Shown in pieces: positions 4,250 through 26,755 of a stretch of DNA of 32,000 bases; the stretch's first letter is position 1; each line of letters starts with the position of its first letter. The notes beneath the pieces were generated by a model. That model worked only from the letters and a program-made list of their open reading frames with translations. It ran no database searches and was not told the origin of the DNA. A program made the position numbers and the translations under genes. Source of the DNA: Pyrolobus fumarii 1A (lineage in GTDB: Archaea > Thermoproteota > Thermoprotei_A > Sulfolobales > Pyrodictiaceae). The stretch covers positions 1,020,001 to 1,052,000 of the forward strand of contig NC_015931.1 of assembly GCF_000223395.1 (NCBI RefSeq). Reading direction: 5' to 3'.

Positions 4250-4260
4250 GGTGAGAGTGT

Positions 4261-8614: not shown

Positions 8615-9082
8615 ATGATAGACCCGAAGGGGCTACTTATCGTATCAACTGCTATTGCGTTGGTGAGTGTTGTTATAGGCATGGCCTTCGCGAGCAGTAG
8701 CATAGAGGTTGTAAAAGCTTGCATAGTTGAGCGTGGTGCGCATCACTCGATACTCTTAGAGTTGAACGTTGGCGGTTTGCATAGCTTGAGAGGCGTCTGG
8801 GTTAATGGCGAACGAATAGAGATGACGAGCCCGATTGTCATAACTTCGGGTCGCGTAGTGTTGCTTATCGAGAGTATGAGCTCAGTAAGAGTATTCCCAA
8901 GCATCGATGCAGCAATGAGGTACATTATGTCGCCGGATTACAGCCTGTTTCCAGGCAGACCGCTGCCAGACGCAATCGTATACCATGTTAGGCTTGTGTT
9001 CGACTCGGGGCTAGTAATAGACTATGTAATCAAGAAGGGTGATCAGGTCGGTGATAGGGTTGTGGTATGCCGCTCTTCATAG
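8615..9082 (+). CDS. Hypothetical secreted/membrane protein with a class III (type IV pilin-like) signal peptide
   Basis: ATG at 8615 gives MIDPKG|LLIVSTAIALVSVVIGMAF, a short charged N-terminus, KG, then a hydrophobic helix. The ORF track's longer start at 8579 is less likely. Confidence 0.4.
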   Translation: MIDPKGLLIVSTAIALVSVVIGMAFASSSIEVVKACIVERGAHHSILLELNVGGLHSLRGVWVNGERIEMTSPIVITSGRVVLLIESMSSVRVFPSIDAAMRYIMSPDYSLFPGRPLPDAIVYHVRLVFDSGLVIDYVIKKGDQVGDRVVVCRSS

Positions 9083-9885
9083 CGGGGTTCGGTACGAGTA
9101 TAGAGTACGTGACGCTCCGGCTTTTGGATGTGTTGCGTGAAGCAGACAAGGTCTACATAGATGCGTATACCAGTATAGCGCCTGGGCTTGACGCGGATAG
9201 TGTTGCTAGGCTTGCGCCTCGCGCCGAGATAGTGATTGCAGACCGTAAGCTTCTCGAGGAGAAGCAGAGCGTTATCATCGAGGAGGCGCGGGAGAAGAAT
9301 ATCGTGGTTCTCGTCCCGGGGGACCCGATGCTAGCAACTACGCACGTGACGCTCCGCATCGAGGCCGTGAGGAGAGGTGTGTCTGTTGAACTCATCCATG
9401 GCGTCTCTGGGTTGCAAGCTGTCGTTAGCTACACTGGTCTGCAGGTGTACCGTTTCGGGCGTACAGTGACACTCGTCTACCCCGAGGAGGGCTTCAAGCC
9501 ATACTCAACAGTAGAGTATACATGGGAGAACCTTGACCGTGGGCTGCACACGCTCATACTACTCGATCTGCGCTTGGATCAGGGCCGAGCAATGAGCATC
9601 AACGAGGCTATACCGATACTCCTCGAGCTTGAAGACGAGCTAGTCTCGCAGACGGGGCGCAAAGAGAGGCTCATACGAGACTCTATACTGGTGGGCGTGG
9701 CGCGTGCTGGCACACGCGAAGCAAAGTGCAGGGCTGGCAAGGCGGAAGAGGTGGCGTCCGAGGCCTATCCTCCCCCGCCACACTCGCTGATAGTAACAGC
9801 GCCCAGGCTACACCCTATAGAAGAAGAGGCGCTACACCTCATATGCAATCTGGGCGTGGCGCGGCACGGCCCGAAGACACGCTAA
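9067..9885 (+). CDS. dphB: Diphthine synthase (tetrapyrrole-methylase superfamily)
   Basis: N-terminus MPLFIAGFGTS...VTLRLLDVLREADKVYIDAYTS and VLVPGDPMLATTH, with length and architecture typical of archaeal Dph5. Confidence 0.9.
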   Translation: MPLFIAGFGTSIEYVTLRLLDVLREADKVYIDAYTSIAPGLDADSVARLAPRAEIVIADRKLLEEKQSVIIEEAREKNIVVLVPGDPMLATTHVTLRIEAVRRGVSVELIHGVSGLQAVVSYTGLQVYRFGRTVTLVYPEEGFKPYSTVEYTWENLDRGLHTLILLDLRLDQGRAMSINEAIPILLELEDELVSQTGRKERLIRDSILVGVARAGTREAKCRAGKAEEVASEAYPPPPHSLIVTAPRLHPIEEEALHLICNLGVARHGPKTR

Positions 9886-12168: not shown

Positions 12169-13080
12169 GGCGTCGAAACCAGCGCCTATCTCCTCGACCG
12201 TAGCCTCGCGACCCGTTTCTATGCAATGCCCCGGCCCTGGGCCTATGCACGCCCTGCCGTGCTCCGGGTCCAGACACACCTCGATACCATCAAGGATCGG
12301 CACGCCTTCGATACGCACCAGCCTATTAGAGGTGTCGAACACCACACGAGCATCTCCTATGAACCTAAGCCTCCAGTCGTAAACCTCCAACTCCACAACC
12401 TGCCTAGTGTACAACTCTCCCTCGAGCCTCCACCCCCGCAGGTCAACAAGCAAACCACGATCCATAACCGCCTTGTTGACGGCATGCGCAACCACACTGG
12501 GCTTCAACAACAACCTGTTATCAAACCACTCGACGGCCTCCAAGAGCTTCCTGGCAAGGTACAATGCCTTCGGGACCAGCGAGGCAGTGGGCTGCGAGCG
12601 CGGATAGGCACATGGCGGCCTAGAGCCCCGAATGTAATACGCGTATATCATCGCGATAGCCTCGTAGACCGGGTCCCCTGCGCCAAGCACACCATGCCTA
12701 ACGCCGCTAATCCCACCGCAATCGCCAGACACGCAAACAACTATAGATCGTGGCTTCTCCGGGAGAAGACCGTCGCGTCTAGCAGGATCCACGATAACCA
12801 CGGGCTCCTTCAGCTGCCCCGGGAGCGTATCACCAAGGAACAGTATCCTATCCACCGCTAGCCGGACCGGCACCCTAGACTCCACGATAGACTTGCTGCG
12901 CGGCACACGCCCAACAACGCTAACCACCCAGCCGCTATCGCCGAGACCAGCAAACAACGTGCGAGCAACAACAGCAACATCAAAGCTAGACCTAGGCCCA
13001 ACGATCACAACGTGAAGCTCACTCATCAAACCCCCAGCATTCTGCACAAACCAGGATACTCGGATAAAACAAGAAGCCAA
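12157..13080 (-). CDS. Conserved hypothetical protein (likely start near 13026, MSELHVVIVG)
   Basis: Long ORF with protein-like composition, while the opposite-strand ORF 12226..12861 is P/H/Q/R-rich nonsense. No family recognised. Confidence 0.5.
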   Translation of the reverse strand: MASCFIRVSWFVQNAGGLMSELHVVIVGPRSSFDVAVVARTLFAGLGDSGWVVSVVGRVPRSKSIVESRVPVRLAVDRILFLGDTLPGQLKEPVVIVDPARRDGLLPEKPRSIVVCVSGDCGGISGVRHGVLGAGDPVYEAIAMIYAYYIRGSRPPCAYPRSQPTASLVPKALYLARKLLEAVEWFDNRLLLKPSVVAHAVNKAVMDRGLLVDLRGWRLEGELYTRQVVELEVYDWRLRFIGDARVVFDTSNRLVRIEGVPILDGIEVCLDPEHGRACIGPGPGHCIETGREATVEEIGAGFDALGL

Positions 13081-13155
13081 CTAGCACAGTAACCCTCAAC
13101 AGTCGATAGGAGTGCAGTTGCACAAGAGAGTGGCACACGTTTTTGCCGCTTAAAC

Positions 13156-13554
13156 ATGGTAGGTCCGAGACAAGGTGAGACCTTGCCCCGCGTGTGCATC
13201 CCGACAGATGACGGCATAAAGGTGAGGAAAGGAGAACCAAGCAGAGCGGCACACATCCTAATCTACGAGTGGACCGGCAACCGATGGCAGCTCGTGCTAC
13301 GCCTCCAGAACCCGTACAGAAACGCCAGCCCCGGCGATGAATGCAAGCTAGCAAAGCTCCTATCGCAACACGGATGTGAGACACTAGTCGCCACACTAAT
13401 CAGAGACGAGGAAAAGACGTGCATGCAAAACGCTAACCTAGAGATAGTCACGGTGGAGCCGGGAGCCGAGATATGGGACGCGCTAAACAAGCTATCATCG
13501 AGACATGCTATGGAGGGGAAAACCCTAAACCCCCAGGTAGGCGAGAGTGGTTAG
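13156..13554 (+). CDS. NifB/NifX/NifY-like (dinitrogenase FeMo-cofactor-binding fold) domain protein
   Basis: The pattern RVCIPTDDG...AAHILIYEW ... GCETLVATLI ... LEIVTV...IWDALNKL resembles small archaeal NifX-like domain proteins. Weak, by eye only. Confidence 0.4.
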   Translation: MVGPRQGETLPRVCIPTDDGIKVRKGEPSRAAHILIYEWTGNRWQLVLRLQNPYRNASPGDECKLAKLLSQHGCETLVATLIRDEEKTCMQNANLEIVTVEPGAEIWDALNKLSSRHAMEGKTLNPQVGESG

Positions 13555-13565
13555 TGGACCATACA

Positions 13566-13643
13566 GGGCCCGTAGCCTAGCCAGGATAGGGCGCCGGCCT
13601 TCTAAGCCGGTAGTCCGGGGTTCAAATCCCCGCGGGCCCGCCA
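13566..13643 (+). tRNA. tRNA-Arg (anticodon TCT) with genomically encoded CCA
   Basis: Cloverleaf folded by hand: acceptor GGGCCCG/CGGGCCC, D stem GCCT/GGGC, anticodon stem CCGGC/GCCGG with loop CTTCTAA, T arm CGGGG-TTCAAAT-CCCCG, discriminator G, CCA. It is 75 nt without the CCA and has no intron. Confidence 0.92.
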
Positions 13644-13875
13644 AACCTGTTCTCACCTCTCACTCCCCGAAAGCTCCCAGGCTTGAATGCCCGTCATGAG
13701 GAATCCAAATCCGAAAAGTTGTTTCACTTGTACGGAAAATAGCGGGTTATGCATGATAGAAATTGTTAAGACCTTGAATATCGGTAAGGCAATGTTCTTC
13801 AATATTAGCTGAAATTGTGTTAAAGCAATCGTATTGTTTTTATAATATGCGTAAAGATCCGTTTTTGATACTCAA

Positions 13876-14145
13876 GTGGGGTTGAGTATGGGGAGTGATA
13901 CCATCAAGGTATTAAAGGACATTATCGATTCTAAGTTAGCTTATAAGTATGTACTTTGCACACTGCTTAGCTCCGAAAGAGAGTTTCTCACGACTTCGGA
14001 ACTCGGCTCCATACTACAATATTCTACAAGTTATATCCGCCGGATTGTTAAAGAAATGGAGGAAAAGGGGTTAGTGATACTAGAGAGGCTACAACCAGAT
14101 GATAGAATACTTGTAAAGATCCCAACGGAACTAAAGAAGATCTAA
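13876..14145 (+). CDS. Small winged-helix (MarR/ArsR-like) DNA-binding protein
   Basis: LTTSELGSILQYSTSYIRRIVKEMEEKGLVILE is a classic HTH plus wing. It is 85-89 aa, and the ATG at 13888 is a possible start. Confidence 0.6.
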   Translation: MGLSMGSDTIKVLKDIIDSKLAYKYVLCTLLSSEREFLTTSELGSILQYSTSYIRRIVKEMEEKGLVILERLQPDDRILVKIPTELKKI

Positions 14146-14163
14146 CACATAATCCTAAAGGAC

Positions 14164-14847
14164 GTGTGTAGCGACATCAATGTGCCTTTCAGCCTAAATG
14201 ACTCGCTTAGGAGAATAGAGAAAATACGTGCTCGTGAACTGTTAGAAGAGATCGTGGCATCTGTTCTTCAAGAACTAGGTTTTGATGTAAAGGTTGATAG
14301 GAAGATGGATGCTAAAGGCGCACAAGCGAAAATCGAGGTCGATGTATGGGCGGAGAAAAGAGTTGGCGACTCACGCTTCAAAATCTATGTTTCTTGCAAG
14401 AATTGGAATAAAGATGATGACAGTCGTGTGGTTTACGAGGAGTTTGGTAGAACGTCTAGCTTGTTAGATGTTCCACATCTCAGGATACTTATAGTCAAGT
14501 CCATGAACTCGCAGGCTAAGAAGATGGCCGATGCCAACGGCTTCTTTGTCATAGAACTTGGTGAGAAGGCGACAGAGTTCAACAGAAACGAGATACGCGA
14601 CCTCCTATACAAAAGGCTCTCCGAACTATTCCGAGGTATAGCACCACCCCAGCTAGTCAGCATTGCAGAGAAGGTTAGGGTTATATCAACTGAGCTCGCA
14701 GGAATATCTAGCGAGTTAAAAATAGTAGGAGGTAAAGTAAATGTAGATTCTAAGCACGTGTGGTTGTACAAAAACAGTCATAGTTGTTGCAAAAACTATA
14801 CAGATGCGGTGAAGACCGCAGACGACTATTGTAAGAGACAAATATGA
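14164..14847 (+). CDS. Restriction-endonuclease-fold (Mrr_cat-like, PD-(D/E)xK) protein with a helical C-terminal extension
   Basis: ELLEEIVASVLQELGFDV ... AKIEVDVWAEK ... KIYVSCKNW matches the Mrr catalytic-core layout (D/E ... ExD ... xCK). It starts 18 nt after the wHTH gene. Confidence 0.55.
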   Translation: MCSDINVPFSLNDSLRRIEKIRARELLEEIVASVLQELGFDVKVDRKMDAKGAQAKIEVDVWAEKRVGDSRFKIYVSCKNWNKDDDSRVVYEEFGRTSSLLDVPHLRILIVKSMNSQAKKMADANGFFVIELGEKATEFNRNEIRDLLYKRLSELFRGIAPPQLVSIAEKVRVISTELAGISSELKIVGGKVNVDSKHVWLYKNSHSCCKNYTDAVKTADDYCKRQI

Positions 14848-14889
14848 ATATATACGCTAGTATATTCGTATTTGTAGGTATATGCTAGC

Positions 14890-16512
14890 CTACTTTTTGA
14901 GCGATATTGTCGATGCTGCTGCAACCACAGCTGCTAGTATGCCAACTGCTATCAGTATCGTATTGCTTGTATCTCTCAACGCTTTAATCTCATTTGACAT
15001 TGCCTCCAGCTTACCGTCTAGCTTTTCTACCTCTGCCTTTAGCCGTTGCACCTCGTTCGCCACGACCGATAACGTCGTGTTTAGTTTCTCTATTCGCGTG
15101 TGTATTGTGCTACCCAGTGACCCTATCCTATTCTCAACGCTGACAAGCCTCTCAGATGTATAGTTTGTAGCCTCTAGCACAGCACCCACTCTCTCCTCGA
15201 TTGCATTCGTCTTCTCTACCAGCTTGCCCCCGAGAGTATCTACGAGGTCGCGTAGCGACGCAATCTTGGATGCTAGCGTCTTGCCAGTCATCCTTATCTC
15301 GACGCGCACACCCGAGATGTTAAGCGCAATACTGTTCAACTCCGAGAGTGTAAGGTTAAGCTTGGTTCTAGCGTCGCCGAGCTCACCGAGAACCCTTGCC
15401 AGCGCCTCCTCCACACTCTCGTTGTGCTCCGACAGAGCCTCTATCACAGCGCCCAGCCTAGCCTGTATCTCAGCGAGAGTCCTAGACGTGTTAGCGGAGA
15501 ATCCGTCCACCGTGATGCGTAGCTCAGCCACCTCTCTCGCAACACCACTAGTAGCGTTGTACACTATGAGCGACAGCCTCTGCTCAAGCCTGCCCAACAC
15601 GTCCGCCACAAACTTCCTCGTCTCCTCAGCCTCACCAGAGACCAGGACACCTAGCCTAGTAACCTCCCTAGAGACTCCAAGCACCGTGTCACGCACCAAC
15701 TCCACATTACTAGCCACGTTGCCCAGCTTAGACTCGACCTTGTCCAGCCTAGATGCTATATCCTCAAGCATACGAGTAACATTGTACAACTGATAGATTA
15801 TGTGCAGGAACTGTGCCTCCCTGTACATCCAAACTGGCTGTACCAAGTAGAATGTAAACGTGTAGGTACTGTATGCGCAATACGCTATATCCGTCTTCAC
15901 TTTGTCCCATAGGCATGATACCACACGCGCGAATATTGTATGCTTGCCAGGCACATCTAATATTACCGTTGGCGATATACCAGTTATTATGAAGCAGTAC
16001 GGCGTGTTAGACGATAGGTCGCGGTCACAAAACACTCTGAAGCCTATCTCGCTTGGCGATGATATCCACTCTCCAGGCTGATAGGCTATCTCCGGGTCAC
16101 TAGACCATAATGTAAGTAGCTCATTGTACAACGTATGTTCGCCATACGAAGTTAGGTAATCATCATCATTAAGCTCCCTAAAGTACATCAATGGACGCAC
16201 AAAGTCGAGATTCACAGCTATATCGGCAAATGCTACATACTCGTGAAACGGTCCTATAACGAACACGATATAGTCATACACGTCTAGTGTCGAACCACTA
16301 GTCCATGCCAGTTCTCTACCCTCCAGGTAGTAGCCCGTAACGTCAAGAATCCCTGCCACCGTAACGCCTGGCATCACACTAGAAATGTCGTAGATATCTG
16401 TGTACGAGTTTATAACATCTATTGTAACACTTGCATGCGTCATATACGCAACTGTTACGACTAGCATCAGTATAGCCAGTATCGTTGTGAGCACAACTCT
16501 ACCTATCCTCAC
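14890..16512 (-). CDS. Membrane-anchored surface protein: signal peptide, Cys-containing globular domain, ~270-aa coiled-coil stalk, C-terminal TM anchor
   Basis: N-terminus MRIGRVVLTTILAILMLVVTVAY and C-terminus TILIAVGILAAVVAAASTISLKK. Residues ~245-515 are heptad/hendecad-like helical repeats carrying 8 N-x-S/T sequons. Confidence 0.7.
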   Translation of the reverse strand: MRIGRVVLTTILAILMLVVTVAYMTHASVTIDVINSYTDIYDISSVMPGVTVAGILDVTGYYLEGRELAWTSGSTLDVYDYIVFVIGPFHEYVAFADIAVNLDFVRPLMYFRELNDDDYLTSYGEHTLYNELLTLWSSDPEIAYQPGEWISSPSEIGFRVFCDRDLSSNTPYCFIITGISPTVILDVPGKHTIFARVVSCLWDKVKTDIAYCAYSTYTFTFYLVQPVWMYREAQFLHIIYQLYNVTRMLEDIASRLDKVESKLGNVASNVELVRDTVLGVSREVTRLGVLVSGEAEETRKFVADVLGRLEQRLSLIVYNATSGVAREVAELRITVDGFSANTSRTLAEIQARLGAVIEALSEHNESVEEALARVLGELGDARTKLNLTLSELNSIALNISGVRVEIRMTGKTLASKIASLRDLVDTLGGKLVEKTNAIEERVGAVLEATNYTSERLVSVENRIGSLGSTIHTRIEKLNTTLSVVANEVQRLKAEVEKLDGKLEAMSNEIKALRDTSNTILIAVGILAAVVAAASTISLKK

Positions 16513-16785
16513 TGGCTACCACCACACATAGACTCAAACCAGTGATGCAATATATACTTATCTGTACTACAACATGGATACAGCTATGCAAAGATGGTAA
16601 TAATATAGGCATACGCTATGCGTAGCTACATATCGCATAAAACACAAACAAAAGCTTAATACTTTATCATAGGCTGAGGCGTGGATAAATAGTATGTTCA
16701 CACTTGCCAGTTTCATACTGGCTAGGTATGCCTTCACCCTATCGGAGATGACGGAGCATGCCAGACGACACGGTTCACACGGGTT

Positions 16786-17115
16786 CTATGCGAGCTTGAT
16801 TAGCTTGGCACCTCTCCTCTTATACTCTTCTAGCGTTTTAGGGTCTACAACGTGTATCTCGAGAGGGTAGTATGGAGGGATGCCTGCCTTCTCGAGCGTC
16901 TCCCATATCCTGGCTATCACTTCGACGCGCTTCTCTGGTGTCACGCGCTCCCTGAGGACTACCATGACGTCGATGTCGCTTAGCACTGTTAGTCTCTTTT
17001 CAGCTGCGCCTCCAAAGAGGTACACTTCCGATTCTGGATATAGCATCTTGACTATTGAGGCGAAGACTTGGACGACTTTCTTCCACTCTCTGAGCAGTTT
17101 GAGCCTACTATCCAC
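16786..17115 (-). CDS. Minimal nucleotidyltransferase (MNT), partner of the HEPN protein
   Basis: YLFGGAAEKRLTVLSDIDVMVV (GG...SDxD NTase motif). The likely GTG start at 17115 overlaps the HEPN stop by 8 nt (GTGGATAG). The ORF track's start at 17157 is probably too long. Confidence 0.8.
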   Translation of the reverse strand: MDSRLKLLREWKKVVQVFASIVKMLYPESEVYLFGGAAEKRLTVLSDIDVMVVLRERVTPEKRVEVIARIWETLEKAGIPPYYPLEIHVVDPKTLEEYKRRGAKLIKLA

Positions 17116-17533
17116 CAAACAGTTTCTCCTCCAGCTCTTCTGCGAGCCGTAATACACTCTTGGTGGTAGAGAGGACTATCTCGGCTTCGCGCCTACTATA
17201 TTCTACCGGGCCGTACGCGGCGCGAGTGTGAGCCTCGCTGAGCCATGCTAACTCCCTCCTATGTCTCCTCACATAGTCTGCGACGTAGCCAGCCTCGTTG
17301 GCGAGACCCTGCTCTAAGAGAGCAGAGACGAGTACGGCGAGCAACTCGCGGATATCATGGCCTCTAACCTCCTCGCCAAGCACCCGGTAGAGGAGGGACT
17401 TCAGGTAGAGCTGGGCGGCATACTCCGCCTCTCTAGCGCAGGTGTCGTAATCGCCTTCATTGCAAGCCCTCTCAGCCCATCTTAGTGCGTTGAGAGCCCG
17501 TCTACGCAGTAACATCGCGTATTCTCCGCTCAC
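17108..17533 (-). CDS. HEPN domain protein
   Basis: The layout AEYAAQLYLKSLLYRVLGEEVRGHDIRELL ... LSEAHTRAAYG matches the classical HEPN family, and it pairs with an MNT gene. Confidence 0.75.
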   Translation of the reverse strand: MSGEYAMLLRRRALNALRWAERACNEGDYDTCAREAEYAAQLYLKSLLYRVLGEEVRGHDIRELLAVLVSALLEQGLANEAGYVADYVRRHRRELAWLSEAHTRAAYGPVEYSRREAEIVLSTTKSVLRLAEELEEKLFGG

Positions 17534-17849
17534 AGCGTAACCCCGCCATTAAGGATAGAGGCTTCAAACTAGGTTCTTGTCCTTGACATAATGTAGACAT
17601 GTGTCACATGTAGGGGGCTTCACACTCTCTACGACCGCATGGTCGTAAATTGCTAGCACATCCAGCCTCGAAGGCAACTTGGTAAAGGATCAATTAAGGT
17701 GGCACATAGCGACCCTCGTGGGGATGCAAACCTGTGGTAGAGGTTGGCTGTGTTCACCTATTTCAATTGCTAACCTGATAGTCGGGCAGTCGAGTCGACC
17801 TCTCAACCTCGTCCTCTCACCCAAAACATTCGTGGTGAGTCTCTCGCGG

Positions 17850-20214: not shown

Positions 20215-20762
20215 GAGGGCTAGAGGACCAGGGTCAACGGGGGCTTAGATCTCCACGCTTTTCACGAGCGATATAGATTAGGTAGTGCGTCGCGCCTGCG
20301 GGTGAAACAACAGAATATGAATTTCATATTAACGGCGTTGTACTGGGAGTACAGACGAGACTATGCCGAGTGTTACATGGGAGCTAGCATATGGCATTCT
20401 ATCCCGTGTGAAGAGACTCACGTTGACCGACACTAGTGTGTACTATACGGCGTGGCTGCTGAGTGTCACATTGATGGGTTTGGCCGGGGTATTCTTTTCG
20501 GGTATTCCATATGGGTTCATGCAATAGCGGCACTAGCTACCTGCGCGGTCTCAGCGATGCTGTCTGCAACGTTGATAATCCGTGCTAAACAGGAGGCAGG
20601 AAAACAACCAAATCAATAGGTTTAATGTTAGAACCGGTTCCTGTCATCCCTCTAACTCTCCGAACCTTTTGATTATAACGCATCATTCGATTGAATAGCA
20701 TCTGGCGGTTTTTCACCACAATGGATATAGATTAGGCGGGAAGGTAGCCCGCGGTTTGGATA

Positions 20763-21449
20763 GTGAAAGGTGAAGCTAGTATGGCACGCGATATTGTAGC
20801 ACGCTCAGTACTTCTAGCATCATTAGCACTTAGCCTCGCCCTGCTGGCGTTCTGTGTGAGTACGGCCTACGCCGCCTTCTACCCATGCAAGGCCTGCCAC
20901 CAGGCCATGAACTTAACAGGTAACAAGAAAGTAGTAGAGTTCCACAAGATCGACCTGACGGTTGGTGCGCACCGCGGCCTCTACTGCTCCAACTGTCACG
21001 TGCCACCACTGATGCAGGAGCTCGTCGGCGGCGGTGAGGTGTACATCCCCGGGATGCACCCGAGAGACAAGCTAATGGAAACTAACAAGGTCTGTGCAGT
21101 CTGCCATCCACGCGAGTACAAGGACTATGAGATGCTAGTCCATGGTAACAAGACGTTCGAGTGTCCCGACGGCAAGGTCGTCAAGATAGTGGGTTACAAG
21201 GGTGTGATATACGACTTCCACGTGTGTAGCGAGTACAAGAACCTAGAGAAGAAGCCGGCTAGAGCCTGCGTAGAGTGCCACGACCCCCACGACCCGACCT
21301 ACTACGCGATCAACATTCTGCCAGAACCGTCCGATAGGCCGGCGCCACCCGCACAGGACGAGGTAGTGTATGGCACTGTCGCCGCCCTGGTGGGTGGCCT
21401 CCTCCTCATTGTTGGTGCGTTTGTCCTTCCCTCTAGGCCCCATGGTTAG
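20763..21449 (+). CDS. Membrane-anchored tetrahaem c-type cytochrome
   Basis: Four CxxCH motifs (CKACH, CSNCH, CAVCH, CVECH), an N-terminal signal/anchor helix and a C-terminal TM (VAALVGGLLLIVGAFVL). ATG at 20781 is the likely start. Confidence 0.85.
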   Translation: MKGEASMARDIVARSVLLASLALSLALLAFCVSTAYAAFYPCKACHQAMNLTGNKKVVEFHKIDLTVGAHRGLYCSNCHVPPLMQELVGGGEVYIPGMHPRDKLMETNKVCAVCHPREYKDYEMLVHGNKTFECPDGKVVKIVGYKGVIYDFHVCSEYKNLEKKPARACVECHDPHDPTYYAINILPEPSDRPAPPAQDEVVYGTVAALVGGLLLIVGAFVLPSRPHG

Positions 21450-21462
21450 GGGGTGAGATGCC

Positions 21463-22494
21463 GTGAGTGGGGAGAGGGTCGAGAGGAAGGAGAATGTTAA
21501 CGAGATGAGGAGGAGCCTCCTGAAGGCAGCCGCACTAGCCTCCGCAGCTTCCGCAATCACGTTTGTAGCTGTTGACAAGGAGCGGTTGAAGAAGGTCCTG
21601 GTGCCGGTTAAGCTCGAGGATATCCTGCCCGAGGCTAGCGCCGAGGGTAGCGAGCTGGAGAGGAAGGCTGCCGAGAAGGAGAAGGAGATGAAGAGGCTGT
21701 GCAGCGAGTGGACGGAGAAGCTGTGTAGGGAGCAGGGTGAGGATTCCGAAGCTTGCAAGGAGGCTCGCAAGCGCTGCGAGATGATCAAGGTCAAGGCTAC
21801 GCCCGCGAAGGAGGGCGTACACTTCGCAATGGCCCTCGACCTGAACAAGTGCATCGGTTGCAGGAGGTGCGCCTACGCGTGCGTCATGGAGAACAACCAG
21901 GCTAGGAACTTACACATAGAGTGGATAAAGGTCCTCGAGATGCCACGCGAGGAGATGGAGTTCATCTACTCGAAGCTAGACTACACTGAGGCCCCGAAGC
22001 CGGACAAGGTATACGTGCCGGTTGCGTGCATGCAGTGCGAGGACCCACCATGTGTAATGGTCTGCCCCGTGAGAGCCACGTGGAAAGAGCCCGATGGGAT
22101 CGTGGTTGTGGACTATGACCGCTGTATCGGCTGCAGGTACTGTATAACCGCCTGCCCGTATGGCGCGAGGCACTTCAACTGGGCCAAGCCATACGTGCCA
22201 CCCACCGAGATCAACCCGAACATGCACGTGCTTGGCAACGTGATACGTCAGATACACGTGGTTGAGAAGTGCACATGGTGTATACAGAGGACGAGGGACG
22301 GCGGCATACCGGCGTGCGTCGAGGTATGCCCGGTGGGTGCAAGGGTATTCGGCGATCTACATGATGCAGAGAGCCCGATACGCCGCGTGATAGAGGAGTA
22401 CGGCGCCTTTGTTTTGAAGCCAGAGGCTGGTACCAGACCAAAGTTCTTCTACTTCTTTGGTCCATCCCGCACTCCTCCACGCAAGGAGGAGTGA
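21463..22494 (+). CDS. Tat-signal 4x[4Fe-4S] protein (NrfC/PsrB/ActB2-like) with a Cys-containing K/E-rich N-terminal insert
   Basis: MRRSLLKAAALASAASA (likely start ATG 21505). Cysteine groups: CIGCRRCAYAC, CMQCEDPPCVMVCP, CIGCRYCITACP, CTWC...CVEVCP. Confidence 0.9.
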   Translation: MSGERVERKENVNEMRRSLLKAAALASAASAITFVAVDKERLKKVLVPVKLEDILPEASAEGSELERKAAEKEKEMKRLCSEWTEKLCREQGEDSEACKEARKRCEMIKVKATPAKEGVHFAMALDLNKCIGCRRCAYACVMENNQARNLHIEWIKVLEMPREEMEFIYSKLDYTEAPKPDKVYVPVACMQCEDPPCVMVCPVRATWKEPDGIVVVDYDRCIGCRYCITACPYGARHFNWAKPYVPPTEINPNMHVLGNVIRQIHVVEKCTWCIQRTRDGGIPACVEVCPVGARVFGDLHDAESPIRRVIEEYGAFVLKPEAGTRPKFFYFFGPSRTPPRKEE

Positions 22495-22506
22495 CGTGAG
22501 TAAGGG

Positions 22507-23763
22507 GTGGGAGCCGTGGCGGGCAGCTTCCTCGAGACAATAATCTATGTGATAAGGGAGGCGCTCTTCAAGGGCAGTAAGCGCTACTACATGGCGCTAT
22601 TGGGGCTTGCACTAATAGCAGCCTATGGCATATACCTATGGATATTCGTGCAGCACGCGCCGATATTCCTCGGCACCGACGAGGGCGGCATGATAGTAAC
22701 TGGCCTTAGCGACAGCGTGCCATGGGGCATCTACATCTCGTTCTTCGTGTTCTGGGTTGGTGTAGCAGCGGCAGGCATAGTCTTCGGTATAGCTGCTTAC
22801 GTCTTCGGCGACAAGGAGTTCAAGAAGGTCGCGGCGCTCGGCGAGGTCCAGGCAGTAGCAGCTGTAATAACAGCGCTATCGCTAGTCTACGTTGACCTCG
22901 GCAGGCCGATAAGAGGCCTCTTCCTGATGCCACAGCTGCCAAACCTACACTCCATGTTCGACTACGACTTCCTGGTGCTAACCGGCTATCTAACGCTAAA
23001 CCTGATCGGCGTGCTAGTGACGATACACTACTATCGTCGAGACAAGCCGCTACCCAAGAAGTTCATAGTGCCATTCATGATCATTGCTGCGCCATTCGCA
23101 ATCGGCATTCACACCGTGACAGCATTCATCTCCCAGGCGCTAACGGCTAGGCCCATCTGGCACAGCCCGCTACTAGCGCCACGCTACGTAGCCACGGCGT
23201 TCGCCAGCGGTCCCGCGATACTACTACTAGCGCTCTACCTCGCCGAGCGCTACGTGCCAGGCTTCAAGGTGGACTTCAGCGTCTACAAGAAAACGACGTA
23301 TGTGATGGTAGCGGCGCTAGTAGTAGGCCTCTACTTCACGCTCAGCGAGGTTCACGAGATATACTGGTATACGACTGAGGCGCTGAAGAAGGCGCAGGCC
23401 AACGAGCTATTCTTCGGCTACCACCTGCCATACCTAGCGATAATGATGTGGCTATGGATAGGCCTTGGCATCGCAGCTGTCATACTAGGCATACTGCCAA
23501 GGATCCACAACACTAAGAGCGGCATACTACTCGTCGCGGTGTTGACGATAGTGGCGGTCATCTGTGAGAAGACAATGACGGTGATAATTCCAGGCTTTGT
23601 GCCGGACACGCTAGGCCAGATAGTACCATACTATCCGACGCCAGTAGAGATAGCCATAACGATAGGCGTGCACGCCATCGGCATGCTAGTGTATCTGGCG
23701 CTATCCAGGCCAACCATAAAGGCTATAATGACTCACTACATGAAGGGTGGAGAGCATCACTAA
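22507..23763 (+). CDS. NrfD/PsrC/ActC-type polytopic membrane protein
   Basis: 418 aa with ~10 hydrophobic helices, positioned immediately after the NrfC-like gene. Confidence 0.85.
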   Translation: MGAVAGSFLETIIYVIREALFKGSKRYYMALLGLALIAAYGIYLWIFVQHAPIFLGTDEGGMIVTGLSDSVPWGIYISFFVFWVGVAAAGIVFGIAAYVFGDKEFKKVAALGEVQAVAAVITALSLVYVDLGRPIRGLFLMPQLPNLHSMFDYDFLVLTGYLTLNLIGVLVTIHYYRRDKPLPKKFIVPFMIIAAPFAIGIHTVTAFISQALTARPIWHSPLLAPRYVATAFASGPAILLLALYLAERYVPGFKVDFSVYKKTTYVMVAALVVGLYFTLSEVHEIYWYTTEALKKAQANELFFGYHLPYLAIMMWLWIGLGIAAVILGILPRIHNTKSGILLVAVLTIVAVICEKTMTVIIPGFVPDTLGQIVPYYPTPVEIAITIGVHAIGMLVYLALSRPTIKAIMTHYMKGGEHH

Positions 23764-23781
23764 ACAATCCAAACCCTAAAT

Positions 23782-24708
23782 ATGTTTTTTGAACGTATGT
23801 TTAAAACCCATGTCGCGTGTCGTGCGGGGCGGGTGAGGGGTATGAACATGCACAGGATGTATTGGCTCACCCCCGTGCTACTAGCCCTGGTAATAGTGGC
23901 GTTTAGTGTTGCCGCACTAGCCATTACAGAGGAGGAGGCTAAGCAGGTCTTCGAGAAGGCCGGTTGTGCAACCTGCCACAGCACACCTGGTAACGATTTC
24001 AAGAGCCTAGTCGACAAGATACGCAGTTGGGCATCCAAGTACGCTAGCCTAGACGAGGCTGTCGCTAACGAGTATAAGCAGGCTCAGACCTACGACCAGC
24101 TGATGCAGCAGATGAAACAATACACACCCAGCATAAGCGATGAGGACTATCAACTACTCTACCAGTTCTTCAAGCAGGTCTTCGAGGAGGCTAAAGGTGG
24201 CGCCGGGGTAACCGAGAGTGAAGCAAAGCAGGTCTTCGAGAAGGCTGGCTGTGCTACATGCCACAATGCTCCAGGCAACAACTTCGACAGTATCGTCGAG
24301 AAGATTCGCTCGTGGGCAGAGAAGTACGGCTCGCTAGACGAGGCAGTGGCTAGCGAATACCCACAGGCAAAGAGCTACGATGAGCTTATGCAGCAGATGA
24401 AGCAGTACACGCCTGGTATAAGTGACAAGGACTACCAGCTACTCTACCAGTTCTTCAAGCAGGTGTTCGAGGAGGCGAAGGGAGGTCAGGCTGCTGCGGC
24501 CACGCCAACGACGACCACCGCCCAGGTGTCGGAGGCCACCACAACCACTACAACAACACCTAAGGAGAACATAACAACGTTACCATCTGTGCCGACGCCC
24601 AACCCATCCGAGGAGGCACGAAGCCGAATAAGCACCGGGCTAGTGGTTGGCGTTGCGATACTAGTAGTGGCTGTAGTCCTCTTCGTGGTGTTCCGTCTAA
24701 AGAAGTGA
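23782..24708 (+). CDS. Dihaem c-type cytochrome (internally duplicated) on a Thr-rich stalk with a C-terminal TM anchor
   Basis: Two CATCH motifs in two 89-aa near-identical repeats, a linker TPTTTTAQVSEATTTTTTTP, and a C-terminal helix LVVGVAILVVAVVLFVVF. ATG at 23842 is the likely start. Confidence 0.85.
   Translation: MFFERMFKTHVACRAGRVRGMNMHRMYWLTPVLLALVIVAFSVAALAITEEEAKQVFEKAGCATCHSTPGNDFKSLVDKIRSWASKYASLDEAVANEYKQAQTYDQLMQQMKQYTPSISDEDYQLLYQFFKQVFEEAKGGAGVTESEAKQVFEKAGCATCHNAPGNNFDSIVEKIRSWAEKYGSLDEAVASEYPQAKSYDELMQQMKQYTPGISDKDYQLLYQFFKQVFEEAKGGQAAAATPTTTTAQVSEATTTTTTTPKENITTLPSVPTPNPSEEARSRISTGLVVGVAILVVAVVLFVVFRLKK
23935..24486 (+). repeat. Tandem in-frame duplication (period 285 nt) inside the dihaem cytochrome gene
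   Basis: Units at 23935-24201 and 24220-24486 both encode EAKQVFEKAGCATCH...YQLLYQFFKQVFEEAKGG, with scattered, largely synonymous or conservative differences. Confidence 0.9.
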
Positions 24709-24891
24709 GAAGGTACACACTACTCCTCATCTCGTTTTTCTTACCCTGGTATTCAAACCCCGTACGCGTCCAGTGTTTTGCCCGACCTATGGCACCTTCT
24801 AGGTGGTGTACAGGATAGCATTCTCTTTTTGGCAGCGTACAAGTAATAATGTTGTTCTCATCGTATAACTCTCTATGCTGGTGTGGTGTAG

Positions 24892-25215
24892 ATGACTAAC
24901 CAGGATGCAGCATCCAAAGTTGTTGAGAGGGTAGAGAAGGCGCTTCGCCGTGTCATTGTGCCCGGATTTGACATCGACGTTGTATCGGCCGGTATAGTCA
25001 GGCTAGTAAGGGTCTCCAGGGACAGGCGTCGGGTCGCGATAGTGCTTGACTACACGGGCTCTGATCCGTCATGCTTTGCGTGTAGGTTCTTGAACTGGCT
25101 GTTATGGGGCAAGTTGCTCCAGAGAATAGAAGAGGAGATGCGTAGAGAGGGGTTTGAAGCGGTAGAGTTCTTTGACTATAGGACTGGGTTGAGACTAGGC
25201 CAGGGAGAGGGGTAG
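24892..25215 (+). CDS. DUF59/MIP18 (SufT-like) Fe-S assembly domain protein
   Basis: VEKALRRVIVPGFDIDVVSAGIVRLVRV matches the DUF59 core; 107 aa. Confidence 0.55.
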   Translation: MTNQDAASKVVERVEKALRRVIVPGFDIDVVSAGIVRLVRVSRDRRRVAIVLDYTGSDPSCFACRFLNWLLWGKLLQRIEEEMRREGFEAVEFFDYRTGLRLGQGEG

Positions 25216-25220
25216 CACGC

Positions 25221-25481
25221 TTAGCCGCCCACCATGCCAGGGGCGATTACGACCTCCGAGTTGTCACGTAGCCTGGTATCGGGGTGCGCGGGTTTACCAT
25301 TAACAAGCACTACTACGCTCATCTCGTCATCCTCGATCATTGCACGCAGCTTTTCACTCATTCTCATGAGCTTCTCGAGTAGTGTAGCCACTTTGGCGTC
25401 TTCGGGCAACTCGAGTACAAGCTTATCGTGCCCAAGAGCGGCGGCGAGGCCTGCGAGTAGACGAACTCGCACCCTAATCAT
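25221..25481 (-). CDS. MoaD/ThiS-family ubiquitin-fold sulfur-carrier/SAMP-like protein ending in Gly-Gly
   Basis: 86 aa; VVVLVNGKPA...LRDNSEVVIAPGMVGG followed directly by the stop (cct ggc atg gtg ggc ggc taa on the minus strand). Confidence 0.8.
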   Translation of the reverse strand: MIRVRVRLLAGLAAALGHDKLVLELPEDAKVATLLEKLMRMSEKLRAMIEDDEMSVVVLVNGKPAHPDTRLRDNSEVVIAPGMVGG

Positions 25482-25555
25482 GACAATCCTCTTGTGTTTC
25501 TTGCACGTGTGCTCTTAAAACCAAAGTGGCAAGGTAAACCGTGACGACCGCGTAA

Positions 25556-26755
25556 CTATGAACCGTGTTTCGCGAAGTAGGCTGAGAGTTGCTCGGCATA
25601 CTTGAACCCGTTGTCAGGGAAGACTAGCACGTAGTGTCCCGGCTCTATCTCTCCGCTATCCCTTAGCTTCATGAAAGCTGCTGCGACAGCGCCACTACTA
25701 AGCCCCGGCAGGATGCCATCCTTCCTTGCGATGCTCAACACAGCCTCTATAGCCTCTTCGAGCTTGACATCAACTATACGGTCTGGCGTCGACCAGTGTA
25801 CCCATTTCATTCCGGTTTCTGGGCGGCGTATACCTGGTATCACCTCGCCTGGCGCTGGCACAACCCCATACACTTTGATGTTGTCGAATCGCGTCTTGAA
25901 GTAGAATGTTATGGCGCTCATGTGACCCGATGTGCCAAGGCCTCCGACTATGCCCTTTAGCTTAACGCCAGCGTGCTTCAGCTGCACTTCAAGCTCCTTG
26001 GCGGTGAAGCGTAGATGCACGAGGAAGTTTGCATCATTGTTGAACTGGTCTATGTGTAGTGCATTGTCCCTACTCGCGGCTTCCTTCACCTCGCTGATCA
26101 TCTCCACTGTTAGCGACTTATCCCTCCTTACAACCTCGGCGCCCATAGCCTTGAGCAGAATGTCGCTCACCTTCTGTATGCTCTTCGGTATCCACAGTTT
26201 AACCTTAAAGCCGTGTATGGCTCCCATTGCCGCCAGGGCCATACCAGTGTTGGTCGACGTAGCCTCGTAGATCTTGTCGCCCCTCCATCCCTCCTCGAGA
26301 GCCCTAACTATCATATACCAAGCTGTGCGGTCCTTAATGCTCATGCTATACGGGTTGTACCACTCTAGCTTAGCCCATACTGTATAGCCGTCACCGGATA
26401 AGCTCCTAAGCCTGACAAGGGGCGTCGGCCAGTTCCGGTAGAGAAGCTCAAGCGTGTCTTGGAATACCCTATATGGCTCGGGGTTAACATCCTCGTAGAA
26501 CCCAAGCTCCTCGAGGCTAACATTAACCTCTACCGTGCTGCCGCGGCTCACTGGGACTCTACGTACGCCGAGAAACCTCAGCGACCAGTAGAGGATGTTA
26601 GACTCCTCATCAGCCACGACATCGTCGTCGTTGACCACGATGCTTCGGGTAACGCGATTCTCGCGGAGAATAGTCGCCATTGAACTAAGCGCGTTTCTCA
26701 CATCGATACCGCGGTGCGCTTTCACCGACCTGATGTCAACGAGCCTATAGTCCAT
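25556..26755 (-). CDS. O-phosphoserine sulfhydrylase / cysteine synthase (Aeropyrum pernix OPSS-like, PLP fold type II)
   Basis: PLP-lysine motif SMSIKDRTA, then QFNNDANF, GLGTSGHMSAITFY, IPGIRRPETGMKW, and a ~100-aa N-terminal extension. It closely resembles the A. pernix OPSS sequence as I recall it. Confidence 0.88.
   Translation of the reverse strand: MDYRLVDIRSVKAHRGIDVRNALSSMATILRENRVTRSIVVNDDDVVADEESNILYWSLRFLGVRRVPVSRGSTVEVNVSLEELGFYEDVNPEPYRVFQDTLELLYRNWPTPLVRLRSLSGDGYTVWAKLEWYNPYSMSIKDRTAWYMIVRALEEGWRGDKIYEATSTNTGMALAAMGAIHGFKVKLWIPKSIQKVSDILLKAMGAEVVRRDKSLTVEMISEVKEAASRDNALHIDQFNNDANFLVHLRFTAKELEVQLKHAGVKLKGIVGGLGTSGHMSAITFYFKTRFDNIKVYGVVPAPGEVIPGIRRPETGMKWVHWSTPDRIVDVKLEEAIEAVLSIARKDGILPGLSSGAVAAAFMKLRDSGEIEPGHYVLVFPDNGFKYAEQLSAYFAKHGS

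Follow-up and report, generated by a model that had tools for sequence, protein, structure and literature searches.

The idea that NrfCD modules can stand alone is accepted. In alternative complex III (ACIII, ActABCDEF; PDB entries 6F0K, 6BTM, 6LOD and 8K9E), electrons pass from a quinol site through FeS clusters and a membrane-anchored multihaem cytochrome c to a monohaem-type cytochrome c as the exit. NetBCD of Aeromonas and Cbc4 (CbcSTU) of Geobacter combine an anchored small multihaem cytochrome, an NrfC-like FeS protein and an NrfD-like protein; they lack a catalytic subunit and deliver electrons to periplasmic cytochromes. In NrfABCD, the quinol-oxidizing NrfD, the FeS protein NrfC and a small multihaem mediator supply an ammonium-making multihaem reductase. 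Nitrate-ammonifying vent bacteria without NrfA have an analogous locus with a HAO homologue, NrfD, an FeS protein and a cytochrome c.

Parts of an archaeal counterpart are also known. Both cytochromes of the module treated here were catalogued in 2015, Pyrfu_1102 in cluster 06 together with Igni_0530, and Pyrfu_1105 in cluster 30. Igni_0530, the Ignicoccus orthologue of Pyrfu_1102, has been purified from membranes. The A. pernix cytochrome of the APE_1719.1 type serves a bc complex as its c subunit and is encoded beside an oxidase gene. Pyrolobus and Hyperthermus have neither cytochrome b nor Rieske genes, and hence their APE_1719.1-type cytochrome c was assigned to “an unidentified electron transport complex”. 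In P. delaneyi, the orthologous cluster was named a putative membrane respiratory complex, and its proteome contained Pyrde_0485, 0486 and 0496. P. fumarii itself reduces nitrate to ammonia, has three HAO-type octahaem cytochromes, respires thiosulfate, does not grow on elemental sulfur and uses methylmenaquinone as its quinone.

Our analysis covered a stretch of 32 kb (the window) of Pyrolobus fumarii 1A. As described earlier, Pyrfu_1102-1105 are four co-directional ORFs (ORF1 to ORF4) on the + strand; among all ORFs of the window, only ORF1 and ORF4 contain more than one CxxCH motif. The starts at 20781 (ORF1), 22516 (ORF3) and 23842 (ORF4) are backed by Shine-Dalgarno sequences and annotation. 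As Shine-Dalgarno sequences, AGGTGA precedes the ATG of ORF1 and GGGGGTGA the GTG start of ORF2. With the corrected starts, the tight packing on one strand proposed in the sequence-only reading stands, but its gaps of under 60 nt do not hold for ORF3 and ORF4. Here, the spacer (23764..23841, + strand) measures 78 nt and contains a run of six T, the element TTTAAAA and the Shine-Dalgarno sequence GGTGAGG; it may provide an own promoter for ORF4. The TATA-like 13-mer GATATAGATTAGG (20724..20736, + strand), about 45 nt 5' of the ORF1 start codon, is a candidate operon promoter, and a second exact copy is found at 20270. About 25 nt past the ORF4 stop codon, the T-rich run TCGTTTTTCTT (24733..24743, + strand) resembles an archaeal terminator and may end transcription. 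Mo-pterin, NrfA and oxidase genes are all absent from the operon, in line with the earlier reading, and the P. fumarii locus encodes no catalytic partner. The same window also holds a separate Mo-enzyme/FeS/NrfD operon with a PhsA-like reductase at 1691-6077.

ORF1 (Pyrfu_1102; 20781..21449, + strand) encodes a tetrahaem cytochrome c with the motifs CKACH, CSNCH, CAVCH and CVECH. Transmembrane (TM) segments are predicted at residues 10-28 and 198-216. The C-terminal TM helix agrees with the earlier proposal of anchors at both ends. The N-terminal anchor is less certain, as this hydrophobic segment ends in AYA|A and may be a cleaved signal peptide. With four haems, ORF1 differs from ActA, which has five, and no homology to ActA was detected. 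It is unrelated to the trihaem DsrJ of DsrMKJOP. No match to the NetB model was listed at E<=0.01, and the NrfB model gave 18 of 184 bits.

ORF2 (Pyrfu_1103; 21463..22494, + strand) is a Tat-exported protein of the NrfC/PsrB/DsrO type. It contains the twin-arginine motif RRSLLK, four complete and conserved four-cysteine groups for [4Fe-4S] binding, and an archaeal-specific Cys4 insert at the N-terminus. Pfam Fer4_11 matches at 4e-18. The top NCBIfam model is DsrO with 193 bits (below the cutoff of 200), and the NrfC model reaches 120 of 378 bits. In the PDB sequence comparison, the best match is PsrB (2vpw_B, 4e-40), and the protein also aligns with the FeS portion at the C-terminal end of ActB.

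ORF3 (Pyrfu_1104; 22516..23763, + strand), whose product matches the P. fumarii protein P0001 at 100% identity, is the NrfD-family integral membrane subunit and the presumed site of quinol. It matches Pfam NrfD at 1e-35, and its hydropathy predicts 10 TM helices with both ends inside. NrfD proper has 8 TM helices, and the curated NrfD model gave no match to the module. ORF3 instead falls into the 10-helix group that holds DsrP and ActC. The NCBIfam DsrP model scores 239 bits, under its cutoff of 350. The AlphaFold2 model (pLDDT 84, pTM 0.86) was compared by Foldseek, and the best matches are the ActC chains of the four ACIII structures (TM-scores 0.72-0.76, E 5e-12 to 1e-9), followed by ActF; PsrC is absent among the matches at E<=1e-3. 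At the sequence level, ActC chains are the only PDB matches. The nearest kin of ORF3 is thus DsrP as judged by sequence, and ActC of ACIII as judged by predicted fold.

ORF4 (Pyrfu_1105; 23842..24708, + strand) encodes a dihaem class I cytochrome c with a tandem-duplicated domain, a stalk rich in Thr and a C-terminal TM anchor. CATCH occurs in two copies, Pfam Cytochrom_C and Cytochrome_CBB3 both match, and the protein resembles Aquifex cytochrome c555. At the protein level, the two domains hardly differ, and their DNA shares 77% identity. Apart from P. fumarii, a single MAG (L011) shows this duplication; most relatives have a monohaem cytochrome. A CxxCH motif and an invariant Met are common to the whole family including APE_1719.1 of A. 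pernix. The N-terminal hydrophobic segment ends in ALA|I and may be a cleaved signal peptide instead of an anchor. As the exit cytochrome, this stalked and TM-anchored class I protein differs from the lipoprotein ActE. The subunits are therefore those named in the sequence-only reading: a tetrahaem cytochrome, a Tat-exported 4x[4Fe-4S] protein, an NrfD-type membrane protein and a stalked dihaem cytochrome c. The outward-facing topology proposed there holds as well.

The module is widely conserved. Its gene order recurs in about 30 loci of Desulfurococcales, the synteny is the same in P. fumarii, P. delaneyi and H. butylicus, and about 24 of 33 archaeal loci retain the order tetrahaem cytochrome, FeS protein, NrfD and class I cytochrome c. 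Ignicoccus-type modules have no class I cytochrome c. The four CxxCH motifs and five further His residues of ORF1 are invariant in 22 orthologues. Together with the recurring gene order, this shows that the arrangement is not due to chance. Bacteroidales, Puniceicoccaceae and Steroidobacteraceae likewise have tetrahaem-FeS-NrfD modules homologous to this one. The earlier reading named a lack of cytochrome c maturation genes as grounds for refutation, and it withstands this check: in relatives, the module is bordered by ccm genes, and CcmF is encoded elsewhere in the P. fumarii genome.

No Mo-pterin catalytic subunit lies next to the module in any of about 33 loci. A C-terminally anchored HAO-family octahaem cytochrome is encoded near it in 8 of the 33 related loci, in four of these on the same strand and at most 175 nt away; no such adjacency is seen in P. 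fumarii, Ignicoccus or most Pyrodictium loci. Where the octahaem is adjacent, ccm genes are often adjacent too, and the region may be no more than an island of cytochrome genes. The novelty claimed earlier is thus only partly upheld: a possible catalytic partner does lie next door in some relatives, direct orthologues of the module proteins were already on record (Igni_0530/Hbut_1391 in cluster 06, APE_1719.1/Hbut_1395 in cluster 30, and Pyrde_0485-0488, already seen as a putative respiratory complex), and NetBCD and Cbc4/CbcSTU are functionally equivalent bacterial modules. The statement that c-type cytochromes are uncommon in hyperthermophilic Crenarchaeota was overstated, as they are well documented in this family. 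In the texts consulted, we did not find the four-gene unit described as a single module. The genes are real and conserved, and they encode a variation on a known type of complex, parts of which have already been published.

On balance, Pyrfu_1102-1105 probably encode a stand-alone, four-subunit membrane methylmenaquinol:cytochrome c oxidoreductase comparable to NetBCD, Cbc4 or a minimal ACIII, as the sequence-only reading had proposed in outline. ORF3 would oxidize methylmenaquinol near the outer face of the membrane, ORF2 on that face would take the electrons, and these would then pass to the anchored tetrahaem ORF1 and leave via the stalked ORF4 to terminal reductases beyond the cytoplasmic membrane. 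Subunit identities, cofactor motifs, topology signals, synteny, neighbourhood and the likeness to ActC are observed. What we infer is the direction of electron flow, which of the two cytochromes comes first, the acceptor and, if there is any, proton translocation. The logic is that of ACIII, but the Mo-pterin-like ActB1 domain, ActD and the second NrfD-like protein ActF are missing. In composition, the module resembles NetBCD and Cbc4 (CbcSTU); a class I cytochrome c subunit and TM anchors at the C-terminus come in addition. The cluster 30 cytochrome of A. pernix, in contrast, works in a Rieske/cytochrome b complex. The partner is most likely the HAO-family octahaem cytochrome, which would take the place of NrfA (absent here) and reduce nitrite or hydroxylamine to ammonium in the nitrate ammonification of P. 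fumarii; a haem-copper oxidase or other acceptors are possible alternatives. Neither nitrite nor O2 can be the universal acceptor, because Hyperthermus, P. occultum and Ignicoccus, all strictly anaerobic sulfur reducers, carry the module.

Direction cannot be read from sequence, and NrfCD modules can work either way. A Qrc-like cytochrome c:quinone oxidoreductase, in which an extracytoplasmic donor, either a hydrogenase or the octahaems it reduces, feeds electrons through the cytochromes to methylmenaquinone at the NrfD subunit, and the quinol serves membrane Mo-enzymes such as the PhsA-like reductase, nevertheless seems unlikely to us. In its favour, the related Qrc runs from cytochrome c to quinone by the same logic, the octahaem Igni_0955 accepted electrons from the native hydrogenase of Ignicoccus in vitro, strict H2/S0 respirers carry the module, and a Mo-enzyme/FeS/NrfD operon lies within the window. 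The Qrc models, however, stay far under their cutoffs (QrcC 146 of 400 bits, QrcD 50 of 570) and QrcB is missing, the ORF3 fold is nearest to ActC, a quinol oxidizer, and the uptake hydrogenases of Pyrodictiaceae were proposed to reduce quinone directly. ORF4 is of the His/Met class I type known from the A. pernix bc complex; such cytochromes normally accept electrons at high potential and would donate poorly to methylmenaquinone. Quite unlikely is a role as subunits of, or dedicated donor to, a sulfur, polysulfide or thiosulfate reductase or an H2:sulfur oxidoreductase supercomplex in Pyrodictiaceae and Ignicoccus. Nass et al. hypothesized that Igni_0530 is part of a sulfur reductase, haem c is present in the H2-oxidizing, sulfur-reducing complexes of P. 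abyssi and P. brockii, and the FeS and NrfD genes carry the annotations “polysulfide reductase” and “related to sulfur reductases”. The thiosulfate respiration of P. fumarii would fit as well. Against this stand the missing Mo-pterin neighbours, the window's Mo-enzyme with its own FeS and NrfD partners, and P. fumarii itself, which retains the module yet does not grow on elemental sulfur. P. delaneyi Su06, which does not reduce sulfur, expresses the module on nitrate and ferrihydrite.

The same P. delaneyi work bears on a special form of the favoured reading with another acceptor, in which the module would be a quinol dehydrogenase serving only to pass electrons out of the cell to Fe(III) minerals. 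When grown on ferrihydrite, P. delaneyi contained more of the monohaem orthologue Pyrde_0485, and NetBCD and Cbc4 are the analogous enzymes of iron reducers, but the other P. delaneyi subunits showed no differential abundance, the authors held another cytochrome complex and Mo-enzymes responsible for reducing iron, and many carrier species are not known as iron reducers. We regard this as very unlikely. A DsrJOP module in DsrC- or sulfite-linked sulfur metabolism is highly improbable and already largely refuted. DsrO and DsrP are the best curated models, the gene order is that of dsrJ-O-P, and in a neighbour-joining tree, the archaeal clade is sister to DsrP and the bacterial tetrahaem type. 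We rejected DsrJOP identity on the below-cutoff scores of both models, the lack of homology between ORF1 and DsrJ (hhalign probability 8%) and the absence of DsrM and DsrK genes beside the module in any archaeal locus examined; in addition, ORF2 keeps all four cluster motifs, two of which are missing from the compared DsrO sequences.

Methylmenaquinol:cytochrome c oxidoreductase activity is hence the reading we retain. It is suggested by the composition, cofactor motifs and membrane orientation predicted for a widely conserved unit, by the closeness of the NrfD model to the quinol-oxidizing ActC, and by the absence of bc complex genes in Pyrolobus and Hyperthermus. The octahaem genes near eight loci, the reduction of nitrate to ammonia by P. 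fumarii with its three HAO-type octahaems, the production of orthologues as proteins and methylmenaquinone as the quinone point the same way, as do, by analogy, the vent-bacterial locus and the precedent of NetBCD and Cbc4. The lack of an adjacent octahaem gene in P. fumarii and the Ignicoccus-type modules without class I cytochrome c count against it. If this reading is true, the module substitutes for the bc1 complex or ACIII in Pyrodictiaceae and related Desulfurococcales.

The four co-directional ORFs (ORF1–ORF4, Pyrfu_1102 to Pyrfu_1105) were found where the sequence-only reading had placed them. Their starts, at positions 20781, 21463, 22516, and 23842, are backed by Shine–Dalgarno sequences and by the annotation; for ORF1, ORF3, and ORF4, the annotated starts differ from the longest-ORF starts. 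Because of these supported starts, the spacers are 13, 21, and 78 nt. ORF1 contains four CxxCH motifs and ORF4 two, and a scan of all ORFs of the 32-kb window found no further ORF with more than one. The two cytochromes are listed as Pyrfu_1102 and Pyrfu_1105 in the tables of Kletzin et al. (2015), and ORF3 matches, at 100% identity, the protein “Polysulphide reductase NrfD [Pyrolobus fumarii 1A].” Pfam and NCBIfam assign ORF2 to the 4Fe-4S dicluster proteins, ORF3 to the NrfD family of membrane proteins, and ORF4 to the class I cytochromes c. In ORF2, a Tat motif, RRSLLK, is accompanied by four groups of four cysteines, all complete. For ORF3, hydropathy predicts 10 TM helices, and the positive-inside rule places both termini in the cytoplasm. 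A hydrophobic N-terminal segment and a C-terminal TM helix are common to ORF1 and ORF4, the latter also having a Thr-rich linker. As the N-terminal segments of ORF1 and ORF4 end in AXA-type motifs, they may be cleaved.

The 600-nt gap upstream of the operon contains two exact copies of the TATA-like 13-mer GATATAGATTAGG, one at 20724–20736, about 45 nt 5′ of ORF1, and the other 454 nt further upstream at 20270–20282. Only ORFs of 44–55 aa, one of them hydrophobic, lie downstream of the 20270 copy, which could drive a small protein or an RNA. A T-rich run is located 3′ of the ORF4 stop codon. The ORF3–ORF4 spacer (23764–23841) has a T6 run and a TTTAAAA element, followed by a strong Shine–Dalgarno sequence. 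Partly independent transcription of ORF4 is possible and would agree with Pyrde_0485, its orthologue in P. delaneyi, being regulated separately. A sigma-70 promoter scan, a scan type not applicable to an archaeon, gave a count at or below the shuffled-sequence expectation, and an Rfam search returned nothing but a tRNA.

To follow the operon across archaea, we used an NrfD-alignment scan with one genome per species. It gave 30 loci, which belong to Pyrodictiaceae, Hyperthermus, Thermodiscus, Ignicoccus, and MAGs labelled Desulfurococcales or Acidilobaceae. The module loci of H. butylicus, I. islandicus, and P. delaneyi brought the comparison to 33. The order tetrahaem–FeS–NrfD recurs in every archaeal locus whose contig allows viewing it, and a class I cytochrome c gene comes next in about 24. 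This fourth gene encodes a monohaem protein nearly everywhere, a dihaem protein only in P. fumarii and one MAG (L011). The two domains of ORF4 are near-identical as protein at a DNA identity of 77%, which points to a lineage-specific tandem duplication. Ignicoccus-type modules have a longer NrfD (468–476 aa), and the class I cytochrome is absent.

The haem-binding motifs read from the P. fumarii sequence are conserved: all four CxxCH motifs are invariant in 22 tetrahaem orthologues, together with five further His and two non-haem Cys. Pyrfu_1102 was placed in cluster 06 (Igni_0530-type tetrahaem cytochromes) of the 2015 catalogue and has the features of that cluster, namely a length of ~210–250 aa, four CxxCH, a C-terminal TM helix, and a position 5′ of FeS and NrfD genes. 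Pyrfu_1105, placed in cluster 30 (APE_1719.1-type class I cytochromes), has a signal/TM segment, CxxCH, a conserved Met, a Thr/Pro-rich stalk, and a C-terminal TM helix. An alignment of APE_1719.1 with 22 orthologues shows a common CxxCH, an invariant Met, a Thr/Pro-rich stalk, and a C-terminal anchor. In the archaeal FeS subunits, an N-terminal insert of ~70–90 aa separates the Tat signal from the first cluster motif (ORF2 residues ~40–115); this insert is absent from bacterial homologues and from DsrO. Its four conserved Cys could form disulfides or an extra metal site. The archaeal tetrahaems likewise have an insert between haems 3 and 4 (ORF1 residues 122–160) that is absent from bacterial homologues and contains the invariant C128, H147, and C149.

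Cytochrome c maturation, which the sequence-only reading had wanted checked, is accounted for by ccm genes that flank the module in relatives and by CcmF in the P. fumarii genome. Within the 32-kb window, ccm genes are absent. The P. delaneyi module is immediately preceded, on the same strand, by ccmB, a thioredoxin-type gene, ccmF, and ccmC, and at least six further loci have ccmF, ccmC, a likely ccmE (a gene without Pfam match), and a ccmB-like ABC-2 permease gene beside the module. Outside the window, the P. fumarii genome has a gene for a CcmF homologue of 1031 aa (E 7e-211), and the Pyrfu_1102 row in Table S1 of Kletzin et al. reads “YES” under three or more CCM genes. As for haem synthesis, the window has a tetrapyrrole methylase gene at 9067–9885 (+), and H. 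butylicus has a porphobilinogen synthase (ALAD) gene ~7 kb upstream of its module (L001:569-1585); haem biosynthesis genes may be loosely clustered with the cytochrome genes.

The flanks of the P. fumarii operon are unrelated genes: a P-type metal ATPase and a ribbon-helix-helix protein upstream, and a DUF59-like gene, a ThiS-like gene, a PLP enzyme, and Amt with PII downstream. In the stretch 24892–26755, the DUF59/FeS-assembly-like gene is followed, on the opposite strand, by the ThiS-like sulfur-carrier and CysM-like PLP enzyme genes. The PLP enzyme has an N-terminal extension of ~100 aa, and in P. delaneyi, a PLP enzyme gene lies two genes downstream of the module. At ~13000–17600, beside tRNA-Arg(TCT) at 13566–13643, the GC content falls to 0.46–0.50. 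This stretch contains a gene for an Mrr-type nuclease, a coiled-coil ORF of 540 aa, and a nucleotidyltransferase/HEPN pair, and it may be an integrated element. In P. delaneyi, the place immediately before the module is taken by the ccm genes instead. Apart from the cytochrome operon, the window has a classical molybdoenzyme operon of three genes at 1691–6077 (+), which encodes a Tat-signal Mo-bisPGD subunit of 852 aa, an FeS subunit of 215 aa, and an NrfD-like anchor of 390 aa. The best NCBIfam match of the Mo-bisPGD subunit is PhsA thiosulfate reductase (269 bits, under cutoff), and the operon is a candidate for the thiosulfate or polysulfide reductase of P. fumarii.

That the module comes with no catalytic subunit, as claimed from the sequence, is true of the P. 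fumarii locus but not of the family, since an HAO-family octahaem cytochrome is encoded near the module in 8 of the 33 loci. The distance is at most 175 nt, with both on the same strand, in four of them (L015, L024, L028, and L029). These proteins match Pfam Multi-haem_cyto, have hydrazine dehydrogenase as best NCBIfam model, and end C-terminally in a coiled coil and a TM anchor. The H. butylicus octahaem is Hbut_1389, two genes upstream of the module, and the P. delaneyi paper combines the octahaem Pyrde_0496 with Pyrde_0485–0488 in one “putative membrane respiratory complex.” Because the association is not universal and overlaps with the ccm clustering, it may in part reflect a cytochrome gene island. 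Other neighbors recur in related loci. An HTH_10 regulator is one. Another is a protein of ~480–540 aa (L006:5767-7386, with homologues in at least 10 archaeal loci) that combines an internal RR-plus-hydrophobic segment with a 2x[4Fe-4S] ferredoxin domain at the C-terminus; its gene lies 60–800 nt from the module in many relatives and is absent from the P. fumarii window.

P. fumarii oxidizes H2 with nitrate (to ammonia), thiosulfate, or low O2. Its quinone is methylmenaquinone, cytochrome b and Rieske genes are absent, and it has three HAO-type octahaem cytochromes, Pyrfu_1334, Pyrfu_1339, and Pyrfu_0788. Starting from the observed subunits, cofactor motifs, topology, and synteny, we infer the direction of electron flow, the order of the cytochromes, the acceptor, and any energy coupling. 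Methylmenaquinol would be oxidized by the NrfD subunit, the four FeS clusters on the outer membrane face would take the electrons, the tetrahaem would relay them, and they would exit via the class I cytochrome to extracytoplasmic reductases. We consider this route moderately likely. The HAO-type octahaems are the best candidate for the receiving enzyme, at the step from nitrite or hydroxylamine to ammonium. In vent bacteria that ammonify nitrate without NrfA, a close analogue, a locus of HAO homologue, NrfD, FeS protein, and cytochrome c, has been proposed for nitrite reduction.

Four rival readings are all less likely. Electrons could run in reverse, as in Qrc; the QrcC and QrcD models reach 146 of 400 and 50 of 570 bits, respectively, and the operon has no QrcB-like gene. 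The module could also belong to a sulfur-reductase complex, as proposed in the literature for Igni_0530, the tetrahaem orthologue purified from membranes, or it could be dedicated to Fe(III) reduction. A DsrJOP-like role is largely excluded. DsrO and DsrP are the top-scoring curated models, yet both matches are under the cutoffs (ORF2 to DsrO with 193 of 200 bits, ORF3 to DsrP with 239 of 350 bits). Homology of the tetrahaem to the trihaem DsrJ was rejected (hhalign probability of 8% between the profile of the archaeal orthologues and that of DsrJ). Desulfobacteraceae loci have adjacent DsrM (dihaem b) and DsrK (CCG domain), whereas neither is present in the window or in any archaeal locus compared. 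The DsrO sequences compared lack the first cluster motif and part of the last, whereas archaeal and bacterial tetrahaem-type FeS proteins keep all four.

ACIII is the nearest relative of ORF3 by fold. Among PDB sequences, ActC of ACIII was its sole match, a weak one. With the AlphaFold2 model of ORF3 (pLDDT 84, pTM 0.86), the best Foldseek matches were the ActC chains 8k9e_C, 6btm_C, 6lod_C, and 6f0k_C (TM 0.72–0.76, E 5e-12 to 1e-9), at a sequence identity of merely 16–17%; ActF ranked after ActC, and PsrC gave no match at E ≤ 1e-3. The ActC-like fold agrees with published trees, in which the 10-helix members DsrP and ActC/F are grouped together. ORF3 is thus a 10-TMH NrfD-family subunit of the ActC type, and the class I cytochrome of ORF4 is analogous in position to the monohaem ActE. 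Other parts differ from ACIII. ORF2 matched PsrB, ArrB, and the C-terminal FeS part of ActB among PDB sequences; with 343 aa, it aligns only to residues 798–1022 of 6f0k_B, lacks the N-terminal Mo-bisPGD-like domain of ActB, and contains no detectable molybdopterin domain. ActF and ActD are missing, since the operon, here and in ~30 related loci, contains one NrfD gene and no additional gene for a membrane protein. ActA is a pentahaem protein, whereas ORF1 has four haem motifs; its PDB sequence search matched no ACIII chain and nothing significant, with NrfB and NrfA only at E > 3. The AlphaFold2 model of ORF1 was poor (pLDDT 65, pTM 0.37) and its Foldseek matches meaningless. An exhaustive tetrahaem profile search found only ~10 full-length clusters and weak partial matches to small multihaem cytochromes without a curated family.

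The NrfC, QrcC/D, TtrB, and ArrB models all scored far under their cutoffs for ORF2 and ORF3. For Nrf, the NrfC model reached 119.8 of 377.6 bits and the pentahaem NrfB model 18 of 184 bits, an NrfD equivalog was not among the matches listed, and the window has no NrfA-like ORF. As the features that define membership of ACIII, DsrMKJOP, Nrf, and Qrc are lacking, the module is none of these and belongs to the stand-alone NrfCD class. In this recognized class, exemplified by NetBCD and Cbc4 (CbcSTU), an NrfCD-type dimer “operates alone” and delivers electrons to periplasmic proteins. The module has the same architecture of a small anchored multihaem cytochrome c, an NrfC-like FeS protein, and an NrfD-like protein without catalytic subunit, a likeness of functional class and not of sequence family. 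The NetB model NF049875 was not among the ORF1 matches at E ≤ 0.01 and gave a weak match (E 0.0016) to a distant relative.

Among bacteria, the closest relatives of ORF3 come in two types. One is genuine dsrMKJOP of Desulfobacteraceae. The other, in Bacteroidales, Puniceicoccaceae, and Steroidobacteraceae (L034, L038–L041, L055, and L076), consists of tetrahaem, FeS, and NrfD genes with a nearby monohaem cytochrome c and without DsrMK or DsrJ. The bacterial and archaeal tetrahaems are homologous (hhalign probability of 99.1%, E 1e-18, all four haem motifs aligned). An NJ tree, based on distances and lacking support values, unites the archaeal NrfD proteins in one clade, whose sister group comprises the bacterial tetrahaem type and DsrP. 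The sole bacterial NrfD tested, from the Bacteroidales locus L038, scored 399 bits against the NCBIfam DsrP cutoff of 350. Because it exceeds this cutoff, annotation pipelines probably name such proteins DsrP, and the module draws attention to bacterial homologues that probably bear this wrong name.

A broader reading, which we hold to be rather unlikely as a whole, would join these lines. The “complex III” long missing from Pyrodictiaceae and Ignicoccus would be the present module, acting as a methylmenaquinol:cytochrome c oxidoreductase of a minimal, ACIII-like kind. With anchored HAO-family octahaems, it would form an archaeal, NrfA-independent nitrite-to-ammonium respiration above 100 °C. 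Its tetrahaem–FeS–NrfD core, common to some Bacteroidales, Verrucomicrobiota, and Gammaproteobacteria, would be a stand-alone, ancestor-like form from which the DsrJOP and ACIII types were elaborated.

Parts of the module have been noticed before. Both cytochromes were catalogued in 2015, when the cluster 30 protein was explicitly assigned to an unidentified complex, and in P. delaneyi, the cluster was noted as a putative respiratory complex, with detection of its proteins. In the searchable literature, we found no main-text mention of Pyrfu_1102–1105, Hbut_1391, or Igni_0529, and no description of the four genes as a unit, of their affinity to DsrP/ActC, or of counterparts in bacteria. The module is useful for archaeal bioenergetics, although specialists would hardly be surprised by it. 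Abundant c-type cytochromes are present in Pyrolobus, Hyperthermus, Pyrodictium, and Ignicoccus, yet none has a Rieske/cytochrome b complex, and the four-gene unit is the obvious candidate to fill this gap. Once the two catalogued cytochromes are seen to share a conserved operon with a DsrP/ActC-like NrfCD pair, the gap becomes a testable hypothesis. For P. fumarii, which ammonifies nitrate and whose catalogued cytochrome clusters include none of the NrfA type, the module offers a route of electron supply to the HAO-type octahaem reductases.
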